Positions 34,346 through 60,387 of a stretch of 64,000 nucleotides of DNA are shown piece after piece (the first letter of the stretch is position 1; each line of letters begins with the position of its first letter). Under the pieces are notes generated by a model, which did not search any database, had not been told where the DNA came from, and saw only the letters and a list, made by a program, of their open reading frames with translations. Position numbers and translations under genes: made by a program. The DNA is from Zootoca vivipara (taxonomy: Eukaryota), in the NCBI RefSeq assembly GCF_963506605.1, contig NC_083292.1, positions 29,512,001 through 29,576,000 on the forward strand, written 5' to 3'.

Positions 34346-34409
34346 ATGGAGATCCTTCATCCCTCTCTCGTCATCCTGGCTTGCCTTTTAGGGTCTCTGG
34401 CAGAGGAAG
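34346..34409 (+). CDS. Short pentraxin PTX-A (CRP/SAP-like) exon 1, signal peptide
   Basis: MEILHPSLVILACLLGSLAEE(D), 64 nt, phase-1 donor GAAG|gtgagt; paralogous to the three other 64-nt leader exons. Confidence 0.88.
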
Positions 34410-34943
34410 GTGAGTGCCGTGTGGAGCTGTACAGCTGAAATGACTGTAGCTCTGCACCAGAGCTAAACAGCTGGTTCGTCAGCTGTGGAACCATCAGGGC
34501 AGGACTTGGGGGGAAATCGTGGAGGGCTCCAACCGGTTCTGCAGCAATAGAACTGCTAGCACATTGGAGGGACCGATGGGGCTCTTGAACCTGGAAAGGG
34601 AGGCCCATGTAGGACAAGGAAAATGCTGATCCTAAACCTCCACTGCCTTGCAGGTTATCTTCAGGAGAAGAAAAGGCATATTTGGAGTCGAGTCCCTTAG
34701 GCGGTTTGATGGCACCTTGTATGCCTTTTTCCAGCCACTCCTGCTGCCAATCTGGTGCCAAGTGTAATTGCTCTGCTTTCCTTTGGACCATATCGGTGAG
34801 GCCGGGGGTGGTGGTGGTGTCTTGTCATCTGGGCAGCCCAGGACCTCCATACACACTGCCCAGGCTTGCCCCCGTCACTTTGGTGCAGCTAACACACAGT
34901 TTGACTTCCCCCACTGGAGGCACACTCCATTGTCTCACGAGAT

Positions 34944-35764
34944 CATGGTTCGGCAACCTAAGGCCCATGGGACACAAGTAGCACATGGGGTTCATTTAAC
35001 CGGCCCATATTGGACCCATACCTGCCAAGTCTGGGTCATAAATATCTGGGATCGGCAGCGGGCGCATGACCGGAAGTTGCGTGACACAACTTCCGGTGGC
35101 GCTTCGCCCTTCTATGGGCACCAGAAAATGGCGGCGCCGGCGCCGGAAGTCGCTTCCGCGCATGACTGGAAACACGTAAAAGCGACTTCCGGCGCCGGCG
35201 CCACCATTTTCTGATGCCCATAGAAGGGCGAACCGCAACCGGAAGTCGCGTCACGCAACTTCCGGTCATGCGCGGAAGCGACTTCCGGCGCCGGCACCGC
35301 CATTTTCTGGTGCCCATAGAAGGGCAAGCGGCACCAGAAAAATGGCCGGGTAATTCTCCTCCACTCATAGCTGCCAAGTATCCCGATTTAAGGGACAATA
35401 CCGGGATTTTTCGCTAAACGGGAAACGGTAAGAAAAAAGGGGCTTTCCCGGCGGATACGGGATACTTGGCAGCTATGATTGGACCTCCATCGCCCGCTTG
35501 GGGATCCCCGCCACCCACTCGATCGACTCCCATGCACCGCACAAAGCCGGCACGGAGCAGAGCGGGGACTGCCTTCTGTGATGCTAGCCGGCTTCCCATT
35601 GGCTGTAGGAAGCTCCTGCAGCCAATGGGAAGTTGTGCACGCCTCCTCCGTGCCGGAAGGAGCACCGGAAATAGTGTTTGTGCATGCGTGCGCGCACTCC
35701 GGCCCACCGTGGCGTCTGCAGGACCGTGAACCAGCCCAAGCCACAAAAACTTTGCTGACCCCTG
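34944..35764. mobile_element. Composite hAT element(s) with nested GC-rich inverted repeats in the PTX-A intron
   Basis: Charlie-like outer ends; inner TIR-like cata(c/g)ctgccaagt...acttggcagctatg; repeated ccggaagt/acttccgg units. Confidence 0.65.
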
Positions 35765-36743
35765 CTTGAGACAGATGGACGCCATTTGCAAAGCTAAATG
35801 GGGTCCGTACTGGTTTCAAATTGGATGGGGAGTATTGAGATTCATGATCCTCAGAGTCCCTTCCAACTTTCCAGTTCTGTGATCCTATGAATGAGCAGGA
35901 GTGATCCTGGTTGTAGCAGGGCTGGTGGGTGAACACATTTGAAGGAAGTGGAATAACACACATTGCCATCTAAAGAACTGCCCTTGAGTCTTGACCATAA
36001 ATCTAGAGTGAAAAGGGTTTTGTTTTTTTTAAAGAGAGAAGGCCATGAGGCCACCGAGTCAATACTCGAAAATAGTCTCTGTGCTGCTGTTTGTGACTCG
36101 GAGGCACTTGGAGGAAGGCGAAGCTTTGGATGGGGAAGAGTTGGGGTTTCCCCGCTGTGGTGAAAGCAAACACAACTGTGAGATTACAATCTTGAATAGG
36201 CTGCAGGTTGTGAACTTGGATCGCCTTCGTTTAAAGAACAGGCGTGGCTGTTGACCCATTGCCAAGAACAATGCAACATGCTGGTGCTCACTTTTAAGTA
36301 GTAATGCAACAAAGATTTAGTAAAGAAAAATAATAAAATAAAATCTAGTAAAGGAAAATTAAAAAATAGTAGAGATTGGTTCTTCAGAGCAAATGAAGGT
36401 CTTGCACCTTGCACACATGTACTTGTTCCTCTGGGCAAATTACTTGAGATTTTTTCAAACCCTTACTGTCTGCTGTGCTTCAAATGTTTAACTATGCATT
36501 CTTGTGTTGGTTTACTTGTTTACTGTACTTGTTTGTTTATTGTTGTTGCACCTCAGGTTCTGCTTGTGGGCTTCCCTTAGATACCTAGTTGCCCATTGTG
36601 AGGACAAGATACTTGACTAGAGGGCCCACTGGCCCGAAATAGCTTCTTATATGCTTATGCCATTTCATCCTGCTTCTTTTTTTTTTAATTGTCATTAAAT
36701 TTATTGTATTTTAATGATTTTCTTCTTACTTTTGCCCATGGAT

Positions 36744-36879
36744 CAGGGTTCCTCAACCTCGGCCCTCCAGATGTTTTGAGACTACAGATCCCATCATCCC
36801 TGACCACTGGTCCTGCTAGCTAGGGATCATCCGTGTTGTAGGCCAAAAACATCTGGAGGGCCGAGGTTGAGGAAGCCTG
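36744..36879. mobile_element. Palindromic hAT-type MITE variant
   Basis: Same core as the family; near-TSD cc(a/g)tggat. Confidence 0.8.
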
Positions 36880-37960
36880 CCGTGGATTGTCTTAACAATG
36901 GCTTATTGGTGGTTTATGAACAAAGTGATTCATTAACAATACCAGCACAAAACAACTTTTGCATGTGATTCTGCCAGTCGCTGTTCAGCAGTTGGCTAAG
37001 ATTGTTGGTTTTCTGAGCTCATAATTAAAAACAGTGGAGATCCCGCCCAGCCCAGTGTTCTGTCCAGTGTGAGACCCGCCTTCTACAGAAGGCGTGATTT
37101 TCTATCCCCTTGTTGATAAAGGTGGAGAAGCAGGGCCGACCAAGGCATTTTGCCACCTGAGGCGAGCTGGAAAATGGTGCGCTCCGCCATGTCTCACTCC
37201 TACAGAGGGTTTTATGTCACATGCACCCTCACCCAAACTGCTTCTAAGCTGCAGGGCTGGGCATGAGACAGGGTAGGCGCAATACATTTTGCTGCCTGAG
37301 GCAAAGGACAAGATGGCACCCTCCCCCAAGGCCCATACACAAGCCAACTGGATTTAATCTTACTCCAATACTGGTGAAAGGACTATATCTTCCACTGCAC
37401 CTGAGGGCAGCAGGCTAACACAGGGGGTACAGGGCACTCATAGCTGTGTTTACTCCCTGGACATCGCCAGGATTCCTGGACATCGCCAGGATTCGTCCGT
37501 CAAAAATGGCGTCCGAGCGGAATTTTCTAAAATAGCTTGAAAACTCAGCCATATGGCAGTCCATATTGGAAGTGTTGATTTGCAGATTTCCTTTAAAAAA
37601 AAGCTTTAAAAAGCTCAACAACTTTGGTCAACAGCCCCCCCCCCCCAAGTCTGGATTTTCACGTTCTAAAATATGGCAACTCCACTCCCTGCCCCCTCAC
37701 CACCTGCTGCCTGAGGCAGCTGCCTCATTGTGCCTCATCATAGGCCCAGCCTTGCAGAACAACAAGCCCCATAGAAGCGAAGGCATGTTATCTTACGACC
37801 TAGCCGCCTTGCTGGTACAATCATACCTTGGTTCCCAAACAGCTTAGCTGCTGAACAAATTGGCTCCCCAACACCGCAAACATGGAAGTAAGTGTCCCGG
37901 TTTGGGAACGTTTTTTGGAAGCCAAACGTCCGACGCGGCTTCCGCTTGAGTGTGTCTTTA

Positions 37961-58634: not shown

Positions 58635-58689
58635 CTGCGGAACCATAGAATTGTAGAGTTGGAAAGGGGATCCCCCCCCCAAGGGTCAA

Positions 58690-58936
58690 CTATACCTGAA
58701 GGAGCGTCTCCACCCCCAACATTCAACCCGGACACGGAGGTCCAGCTCCGAGGGCCTTCTGGCAGTTCCCTCGTTGCGAGAAGCCAAGTTGCAGGGAACC
58801 AGGCAGAGGGCCTTCTCGGCAGTGGCGCCCGCCCTGTGGAACACTCTCCCATCAGATGTCAAGGAGATAAACAACTATCTGACTTTTAGGAAACATCTGA
58901 AGGCTGTTTAGGGAAGTTTTTTAATGTGGCTGGGGA

Positions 58937-58987
<51 letters not shown>
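58690..58987 (+). mobile_element. L2-clade LINE 3' fragment plus (AAT)n in the PTX-D intron
   Basis: Same family as 20335-20705 (gggaaccaggcagagggccttctcgg...ctgtggaa). Confidence 0.8.
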
Positions 58988-60323
58988 TTCCAATCCCAGA
59001 CAGGTAAAAGCACTCAAGGAGGGTGTGAAGCAGGGCTGCTGTGGCACATGGCCTGGGAAGAGTACTGAGGGCCAGAAATATAAGCATGGAGGGCCGCATC
59101 TTGTTCCTGATGATTCCCCCAACTTGCCTTAGTCTTTGAGGAAGATGCTCTGACGGCGGTCTGAAAGACTGACCAGCACTTCATCAGGTTTACTGGGGGA
59201 GGGGGCAAAACATACTTGCAACTCTTCCACTTGCCCCCATCCCCTCACCTCAATCACTCAAGCCCCCCCTCCGCCCCCCACTATTTGCCAACCACCCTTT
59301 CCTCCCTTCTTCTAGAATGACAGCTCCGTGCCCTAAGACGGACCTGCAACGGTTATTTGGTGCATGCGCCACCTGGCGGCAGATCCGGATAGCACATGCA
59401 TGTGTGATTATTGCAGACTCCATCCTATTCACTTTGGAATATTGGGGTGGGGTGGGCACAGCTCAGCTGTAAGCGTACGGTATGCTGCGCAAGCATAAGG
59501 TCCCAGTGTGGGGACAATATTGGGCTGGCTGGAGGAACAAATTGATCTTCTCTGAGGCAGCTTTTTGCGTTTCGTTGATCCCTTTTATTCCTGTATTTAA
59601 GCCTCTGGTTAGGTCTCTTGTTCAAATCAACGGGGCTCACCAGTGCTTAATTCTGGGTTGTGCGTTCAGCCACACAGACTCTGTAAGTAATCAGGCATTT
59701 ACTGGCCAACGAGACTCTGTTGTTTAAGCCCCACAGTGGGAAGGAATGGAAATTCTGACATGCAATTTGAGAATTCGGGGTGGTGGTTGTTTTTTTGTTG
59801 CCGATCTGACATTTGAGAGTTGTATTTGTATCCTGCCTTTCCACGTTTCACACATAGGAAGCTGATACGCAGATCCGACCACAGGTCCAGCTAGCTCAGT
59901 ACTGTCTCCTGACAGGAGCTCTGTAGCATTTCAGAGTAATAGGAAGGGGTCCTAAGGGTCATCTAGTCCAACCCCCTTTGTGCTCCTTTCCCTAAAAATA
60001 AAGTAAGCTTCCAGTCCTCATTGTTCTTAATAAAGGGCTGATTAAAATAGGAACAGTATTGTCCACACTGACTGGCAGTGACTATTTAGAGGTTTCAGAC
60101 AGAGGGGTCCTTCCCAGAGCCACCTGGAGATGCCGGGATTTGAACCTGGGACTTCATGCTAAGCAGTTCCTCTACCCGCTGAGCTACAGCCCTTCTTTTT
60201 GGCTCCAATTCAAACCCAACCAGAAACAGGGATACTTCCACGTCTGAACTCACAATGCAGCCAGTCAGTCCATGCACACAGCAACACCCACAATAGCTCG
60301 TTGCATCTGATCAGAGCACCCAC

Positions 60324-60387
60324 CTTCCTGGGCAAGAGACCCTAACAGTCCGGCCAGGATGAGGAGGAAGATCTGAAGGAACCCCAT
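60324..60387 (-). CDS. Short pentraxin PTX-D exon 1, signal peptide
   Basis: MGFLQIFLLILAGLLGSLAQE(D), donor GAAG|gtgggt. TATAA at ~60490-60494 upstream on the minus strand. Confidence 0.9.

Follow-up and report, generated by a model that had tools for sequence, protein, structure and literature searches.

The Zootoca vivipara stretch analyzed here, 64,000 nucleotides long and referred to as the window, contains four intact two-exon short pentraxin genes within 34346..60387, which we call g1 to g4. We propose, at a probability of roughly 0.7, that they belong to an old tandem expansion present only in lizards and snakes, and that their products are likely secreted, use calcium, and bind different ligands. 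We established their gene structure, family, and ancestry, the splicing of g1 to g3, and the differences among them in pocket residues and rates of change; a pattern-recognition function would follow by analogy with the rest of the family.

Gene structures and the DUSP23-proximal locus

In each gene, a 64-nt exon is followed by a phase-1 GT-AG intron and a single exon encoding the Pentaxin domain, with g1, g2, and g3 on the forward strand and g4 on the reverse (Table 1). The donors are GTGAGT or GTGGGT, the acceptors consist of a pyrimidine tract and CAG, and the spliced frames contain no internal stops. The introns of g1, g2, g3, and g4 measure 3901, 3680, 2437, and 1689 nt, and the proteins 228, 231, 226, and 248 residues, respectively. 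The four complete genes of the original prediction, with this exon plan and these orientations, are therefore present at the span given for them. A TATAAA element lies 143 nt upstream of g2 exon 1. A promoter scan, run without a chance control and given no weight as evidence, also displayed C/EBP-like motifs at g1 and g3 and an NF-kB-like motif at g1.

Table 1. Positions of pentraxin and phosphatase exons in the window
Feature	Position	Strand	Remarks
g1 exon 1, signal peptide	34346..34409	+	64 nt; joined to exon 2 in contigs of 4/4 runs
g1 exon 2, pentraxin domain	38311..38933	+	protein = XP_034954563.2
g2 exon 1, signal peptide	45067..45130	+	64 nt
g2 exon 2, pentraxin domain	48811..49442	+	protein = XP_034954561.1
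g3 exon 1, signal peptide	51068..51131	+	64 nt
g3 exon 2, pentraxin domain	53569..54185	+	protein = XP_034955250.1
g4 exon 1, signal peptide	60324..60387	-	64 nt
g4 exon 2, pentraxin domain and ~20-residue tail with three Cys	57952..58634	-	protein = XP_034955249.1
DUSP23-type phosphatase, first coding exon	25904..26173	-	synteny marker, head-to-head with g1
DUSP23-type phosphatase, catalytic exon (HCxxGxGRT)	24465..24650	-	Pfam DSPc E 3.7e-9

Each product comprises a signal peptide and one Pentaxin domain without a long N-terminal domain, with an additional short C-terminal tail in g4. All four match Pfam PF00354 far beyond chance (E = 4e-72, 6e-74, 3e-60, and 3e-62 for g1 to g4), and their pairwise identities range from 42 to 64%. 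The proteins are 100% identical to RefSeq entries labeled Zootoca vivipara, so the genes had already been annotated. The RefSeq name of g3, "mucosal pentraxin," denotes a best match rather than orthology, since MPTX groups with mammalian SAP. Fold prediction, which covered g4 alone of the four, yielded a model with a pLDDT of 88 whose best structural match is SAP (PDB 1sac; rmsd 1.3 Å, E 2e-24), giving g4 a predicted pentraxin β-sandwich fold.

The neighboring phosphatase exons, which we take to be DUSP23 from characteristic motifs together with Pfam DSPc and PTP-SAK matches, bear out the adjacency that had been claimed for the cluster. When 150 frames were compared with Pfam (101 from the first 34 kb of the window and 49 from six flanking loci), only these exons and weak matches emerged, so we assign no names to the neighbors of g6, a sixth pentraxin gene ≈0.7 Mb upstream of the window. 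A fifth gene, g5, lies ≈7 kb past the window end, before ACKR1; the proposed cluster of four thus holds for the window, but the cluster itself comprises five genes. Searches of the same genome with divergent Pogona-type and Ig-pentraxin queries found nothing beyond these six. In mouse, the order is Dusp23, Crp, Apcs, Fcer1a, Ackr1 (PMC6120100 Table 1). Human CRP (PDB 1b09) and SAP (PDB 1gyk/1sac) share with g1 to g4 the Pentaxin domain, Cys36-Cys97, the calcium loop at 138-150, the plan of a signal peptide and one domain in two coding exons, and the DUSP23-pentraxin-ACKR1 neighborhood. In our best tree, however, none of the four is a 1:1 ortholog of either human protein, and g2 scores equally against both (204.2 bits each).

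Public contigs lack the g1 intron in all four runs, which come from four studies. Among four runs examined, exactly 3680 nt are skipped at g2 in one contig (run X4) and exactly 2437 nt at g3 in one contig (run X1), in agreement with the predicted junctions of these three genes. The g4 exon bin has zero depth across four runs (X20, X21, X1, and X4); the tissues of these runs are unlabeled, and the zero is thus no sign of silence. None of the listed runs containing the genes is recorded as RNA, and the comparison with run contigs extended to g1 to g4.

Calcium sites, ligand pockets, and rates of change

The phosphocholine pocket of CRP is marked by the triad F66/T76/E81, which occurs in none of the four genes. 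The residues at 66/76/81 are F/Y/T in g1, F/Y/D in g2, L/A/A in g3, and D/Y/A in g4, which also has R74; g5 is characterized by R74/N150/R172. The family signature, of the HxCxS/TWxS type, reads HICMSWES in g1, QICMSWES in g2, NLCATWDS in g3, and HICLAWDS in g4, with a deviation at one position in g2 to g4. Both Cys36 and Cys97 are present in all four genes. In addition, g2 has an extra Cys172 and a C-terminal Cys, and a cysteine at CRP position 172 is found in 8/8 g2-clade rows, in g4, and in 9/9 rows of mammalian MPTX.

The two-calcium site is described, in excerpts of two papers, as D60, N61, E138, Q139, D140, E147, and Q150 (PMC12705745, PMC13698038). All seven positions are acidic or amide in g1 and g2, which have Asp in place of Glu at 138 and 147; g3 carries F60 (D60F) and D150 (Q150D), and g4 carries P60 (D60P). 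Among 108 squamate rows, the metal core is nearly constant (N61 in 108, D140 in 107, E/D138 in 106), and the pocket has F66 in 49 and an acidic residue 81 in 18. Asp60 is missing in 35 of the 108.

We suggest that each subunit would clamp an anionic group, either phosphate or carboxylate, on two calcium ions, and that the pocket at CRP residues 64-81 would read the rest of the ligand much as in CRP. On this view, g2 would be the copy under conservation, its ligand unchanging. Alone of the four in combining F66 with an acidic residue at 81, it is the best candidate for phosphocholine or phosphoglycerol binding, although its Y76 may instead create a SAP-like, phosphoethanolamine-type pocket. The g1 protein would be a fast-changing copy tracking microbes. 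In g3 and g4, which lack Asp60 and F66, the first calcium site may be weakened and the ligands may be different ones. Judging from these residues, the differing pockets would likely recognize distinct microbial surfaces.

The rates of change differ as well. The g2 protein differs from its Lacerta and Podarcis counterparts at 1 and 3 residues, and g1 at 32 and 25. In the g1 contig of one run, 20 codons differ nonsynonymously and 6 synonymously, over 475 and 143 sites; on this partial list (29 differences of at most 50), the ratio is ≈1, a value compatible with relaxed and with positive selection alike. Region 61-91 changes rapidly in squamates (p=7e-4), equally so in mammalian SAP (p=4e-4), and also in MPTX (p=0.03). 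These controls rule out pocket hypervariability as a squamate-only trait, and the speed is a family trait that is no proof of adaptive diversification.

Both observations are also what would be expected if the copies were retained for dosage or tissue, with largely shared ligands and pocket differences arising by drift at exposed sites, an alternative that we consider unlikely though the strongest of those weighed. A deer CRP likewise lacks Asp60, having Tyr60 instead, so loss of this common casualty need not change function. In salmon, it is tissue and not immune response that sets the CRP/SAP paralogs apart (PMC5446266); most of them are unresponsive to infection, leading the authors to suggest nonimmune roles (PMC5446266, Discussion). 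Against shared ligands, the seven calcium positions and V64/F66/Y76/D81 are common to 8/8 g2 orthologs, drawn from lacertids, an amphisbaenian, tegu, monitor, alligator lizard, and iguanians, whereas the g1 pocket varies among orthologs, and D66/R74/P60 of g4 are retained in three lacertid genera. Furthermore, excerpts of PMC12705745 place the pocket at residues 61-91 and report that human CRP with 71-91 swapped gained mouse capsule specificity and that single pocket changes alter capsule binding.

The missing Asp60 and F66 in g3 and g4 could also mean that g4, and perhaps g3 too, is in decay, its frame still open but little function left, and g4 has a long branch (0.49) as well as P123, N197, and T201, presumably changes at three subunit-contact positions. 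Decay is nevertheless improbable: g4 is 92-93% identical to its Lacerta and Podarcis orthologs over all 248 residues, tail included, g3 is spliced and 91-92% conserved, and both keep Cys36-Cys97, N61, Q139, and D140.

Ancestry of the cluster

The four window genes fall within a squamate-only clade of 60 rows (support 100/98; 97/98 in a second tree) that is sister to one tuatara row (99/89); our sets included two tuatara sequences, making tuatara copy number a lower bound. In the best tree, this clade is separate from mammalian CRP/SAP/MPTX (mammal clade 92/86), and SAP and MPTX rows group together (95/83 and 99/91 in the first tree), apart from g1 to g4. It is also separate from g5, the conserved reptile/bird pentraxin, whose orthologs come from tuatara, alligator, turtle, and birds (100/99). 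This bird "CRP/SAP" type shares its gene plan and cluster with g1 to g4, at 40-50% identity, but is represented by one copy, g5, in the Zootoca vivipara genome.

Podarcis and Lacerta have orthologs of each of g1 to g4, and amphisbaenians of g1, g2, and g3. Forcing the four genes into one clade is rejected (p=1.6e-7), and the base of the squamate clade is an open fork in both trees. Elsewhere, geckos and one skink have 4-6 copies. A recent burst specific to lacertids might account for the g3/g6 clade, found in lacertids and the amphisbaenian Rhineura only, and for g4, whose clear orthologs are lacertid only, but is scarcely tenable given that a single lacertid clade of copies is rejected (AU p=2.2e-5), that g1 and g2 have orthologs across tegu, iguanians, and anguimorphs (and, for g1, snakes), and that the paralogs are so dissimilar; as an account of the entire cluster it is refuted, and it is possible for g4 alone or the g3/g6 split.

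The expansion is thus real and, as far as these trees indicate, old, of squamates, and subject to birth and death. Of the squamate/lacertid expansion first envisaged, the squamate part stands and the lacertid part falls; the view that the copies are too divergent to be redundant is also supported, since their pockets and rates differ and the copies would thus not be interchangeable. A single lepidosaur gene beside DUSP23 would have duplicated early in squamates, with turnover since. With one mammalian CRP in the set, constraints for co-orthology of the squamate clade with mammalian CRP (p=0.061 and 0.089) and for SAP and MPTX joined to the g5 clade (p=0.12) are not rejected; a positional reading, in which g1 to g3 would be CRP and g5 APCS, is neither shown nor excluded.

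Local tandem duplication of short pentraxins is known from zebrafish Chr 24, with 7 clustered copies, and from salmon, with 5 CRP/SAP genes (PMC5446266), and Pelodiscus has 7 pentraxin records inside its own turtle clade. These duplications arose independently in other clades, those of fish at other loci too.

Implications for squamate pentraxins

The g1 to g4 genes are a genuine expansion of a well-known family and reveal no new mechanism. A literature search by title and abstract start found no squamate short-pentraxin expansion, which a 2023 review of pentraxin evolution (PMID 37734429) may cover. According to excerpts of reviews, a CRP protein has yet to be isolated or characterized from any reptile (PMC6503050; PMC13242370). 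"Lizard CRP" or "lizard SAP" corresponds to at least six genes of two lineages, and database names do not follow ancestry. Candidates to test as inflammation markers are g2, which is conserved, and g1, which is spliced in 4/4 runs. Because small pocket changes switch the capsule specificity of mammalian CRP, the squamate set would lend itself to relating pocket sequence to ligand.

More tentatively, squamates may carry in the germline a varied set of soluble receptors of the pentraxin type. In this set g2 would be frozen and bear an extra disulfide, an abundant g1 would be in a race with capsules of microbes and would have undergone further, separate expansions in anoles, agamids, and snakes, and g3 and g4, altered at the calcium site, would engage new ligand classes. 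If so, these genes would offer a naturally occurring collection of CRP pockets to be found in a vertebrate group reported, in an excerpt of PMC11754216, to lack γδ T cells.

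Gene models and the surrounding block

Six-frame translation and a splice scan of the window located four short-pentraxin genes (g1–g4), each made up of a signal exon of 64 nt and a Pentaxin exon (4/4, E ≤ 3e-60) separated by a phase-1 GT-AG intron, with three on the plus strand and one on the minus strand, as the original prediction had described. These are intact secreted-type genes that share 42 to 64% pairwise identity. Each spliced product is 100% identical, along its whole length, to an NCBI protein labelled Zootoca vivipara, and the genes are therefore already annotated, under names (SAP, SAP-like, mucosal pentraxin, CRP-like) that disagree with the tree. 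In all four public sequencing runs compared for g1 (four studies, four organism labels), contigs join the two exons across the 3901-nt intron at GT-AG. Among the four runs compared for g2 and g3, one contig of run X4 lacks precisely the 3680-nt g2 intron and one of run X1 precisely the 2437-nt g3 intron. Contig support for the predicted junctions thus covers g1, g2, and g3, on our guess that the runs are RNA.

Features of the pentraxin cluster and its surroundings (window positions unless a locus or contig is named; G000:C17 is the host genome contig, L-numbers are flanking loci)
Feature	Position	Strand	Description
g1	34346-34409 / 38311-38933	+	2 exons, 228 aa; XP_034954563.2
g1 Cys codon	38757-38759		unpaired Cys at CRP position 151
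LINE-like fragment	41520-42190		between g1 and g2; presumably a retroelement, from translated frames
g2	45067-45130 / 48811-49442	+	2 exons, 231 aa; XP_034954561.1
g2 Cys172/C-terminal Cys pair	49380-49442		
g3	51068-51131 / 53569-54185	+	2 exons, 226 aa; XP_034955250.1
g4	60387-60324 / 58634-57952	-	2 exons, 248 aa; XP_034955249.1
197-N run	60783-60979		~400 nt upstream of g4 start; breaks g4 promoter region
g5	L001:7705-7100 + L002:416-353; G000:C17 about 29,583,100-29,586,416	-	222 aa, ~7 kb past window end
g6	L007:7658-9409; G000:C17 about 28.85 Mb	+	sixth short pentraxin, upstream of cluster
ACKR1 (Duffy receptor) exon	L004:2910-1939	-	beyond g5; best PDB match E 8e-26

A genome search returned six short pentraxins, g1–g4 plus g5 and g6, and two further queries recovered the same six; no intronless extra copy appeared in the genome searches. 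The fifth cluster member, g5, is a conserved reptile/bird pentraxin, and g6, 63% identical to g3, is a duplicate displaced 0.7 Mb from the cluster. Next to g1, in head-to-head orientation, are DUSP23-type exons, confirming the predicted neighbor. The resulting order, DUSP23(-), g1(+), g2(+), g3(+), g4(-), g5(-), ACKR1(-), parallels Dusp23, Crp, Apcs, Fcer1a, Ackr1 in mouse as given in Table 1 of PMC6120100, so the lizard cluster corresponds to the mammalian CRP/APCS interval. The ACKR1 exon marks the far end of the DUSP23-pentraxin-ACKR1 block that mouse also has. Within this block, viewed without a dedicated search, no FCER1A was recognized.

An old squamate lineage

Three homologue searches supplied 261 proteins (the best 120 of 223, 74 of 74, and the best 120 of 281). 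FastTree was run on 192 of them with the six lizard genes, the 69 excluded being mostly bird records, and IQ-TREE on 93 and 78 rows. In the IQ-TREE runs, g1–g4 and g6 fall within a squamate-only clade (branch supports 100/98 and 97/98) whose sister is a single tuatara row (99/89 and 94/89), and g5 is placed elsewhere, in a clade that it shares with its tuatara, alligator, turtle, and bird orthologs. The squamate clade also holds unnamed rows and two UniRef proteins labelled giant panda, P0043 and P0065, which group with snake sequences (100/98, 100/99) and are probably mislabelled or contaminant sequence.

Within the clade, g1 joins Podarcis, Lacerta, and Rhineura (100/95), nested among tegu, monitor, iguanians, and snakes (99/94), with further duplications in anoles, Pogona, and snakes; g2 groups with Podarcis, Rhineura, tegu, alligator lizard, monitor, Anolis, and Sceloporus (99/93). 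Because these orthologs are shared across squamate lineages, g1 and g2 are older than about 170 million years, on divergence dates that we assume. Among the rows sampled, the g3/g6 clade contains only lacertids and Rhineura (100/99), and g4, whose tree position is unstable, has clear orthologs in lacertids only. Other squamates carry as many copies or more, with record counts, which are lower bounds, of at least six each in Euleptes, Sphaerodactylus, and Lerista and at least four in two snakes. Constraint trees rejected the four window genes as one clade (p = 1.6e-7, 43 rows) and a single lacertid-only clade (p = 2.2e-5, 54 rows). The squamate origin of the g1–g4 lineage is thus old; of the squamate/lacertid expansion originally proposed, the squamate part holds and the lacertid part does not.

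An Ig-domain-plus-pentraxin form (P0091, P0203, P0218, and others), sister to the g5 clade, occurs in birds and a turtle, and Pogona has a divergent type (P0282, P0292) that falls in neither main clade and carries Cys at CRP positions 76 and 81; the genome search found neither in Zootoca.

The best tree unites mammalian CRP, represented by a single deer sequence, with SAP and MPTX (92/86). Trees forced to place CRP with the squamate clade (p = 0.061, 0.089) or SAP+MPTX with the g5 clade (p = 0.12) were not rejected. Like CRP and SAP, g1–g4 are short pentraxin family members; orthology to CRP, APCS, or MPTX is not shown.

Calcium site, pocket, and rates of change

CRP numbering was transferred via deer CRP, consistent with PDB alignments, and applied to the calcium and pocket residues listed in PMC12705745, PMC13698038, and PMC6503050. 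All seven calcium positions are kept in g1 and g2, with E>D at 138 and 147; g3 has F60 and D150, and g4 has P60. Pocket positions 64/66/74/76/81 read LFNYT in g1, VFSYD in g2, ILGAA in g3, and ADRYA in g4, none of which is the CRP pocket. Across 108 squamate rows, N61 occurs in 108, D140 in 107, E/D138 in 106, D60 in 73, F66 in 49, and an acidic residue 81 in 18. The seven calcium positions, V64/F66/Y76/D81, and a Cys172/C-terminal Cys pair are kept in all eight g2 orthologs; the Cys pair suggests a second disulfide. The unpaired Cys of g1 adjoins the calcium loop and occurs in one of 19 lizard g1-clade rows.

Constraint differs sharply among the copies. Relative to Lacerta and Podarcis, g2 is frozen, with 1 and 3 residue differences, and g1 is fast, with 32 and 25; g3 has 18 and 20, and g4 has 15 and 13. 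Between g1 and one run's contig, 20 codons differ non-synonymously and 6 synonymously (475 and 143 sites, respectively), which puts the ratio close to 1; the count covers the 29 differences listed, out of 50 at most. Region 61–91 is fast in squamates (p = 7e-4).

A possible division of labor

The g4 model is a predicted pentraxin fold (pLDDT 88, 1.3 Å to SAP). By analogy, g1–g4 may work like CRP/SAP: as in CRP, calcium would clamp an anionic ligand group and the adjacent pocket would set specificity. According to PMC12705745, CRP mutants F66A and E81A alter capsule binding, which a 71–91 swap moves between species; PMC7575696 describes CRP F66A/T76Y/E81A as having lost phosphocholine binding and as purified on phosphoethanolamine. 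We therefore favor, at a probability of roughly 0.7, a division of labor in which g2 would keep a fixed ligand, g1 would track microbes, and g3 and g4 would bind altered ligands. Counting against it, region 61–91 is equally fast in mammalian SAP (p = 4e-4) and D60 is missing from deer CRP too. Retention for dosage or tissue partition, with drift, is a less likely competitor to which these two observations lend room. Decay of g4 or g3, both altered at position 60, is improbable. A recent lacertid burst of duplication deserves almost no credence given the rejected lacertid-only clade.

Tandem short-pentraxin expansions are described for zebrafish and salmon in PMC5446266, and two reviews (PMC6503050, PMC13242370) treat reptile CRP as uncharacterized at the protein level; we found no account of a squamate short-pentraxin radiation in the literature searched. 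The squamate cluster is real and ordinary in kind, and what it offers is a useful contrast between the frozen g2 and the fast g1.
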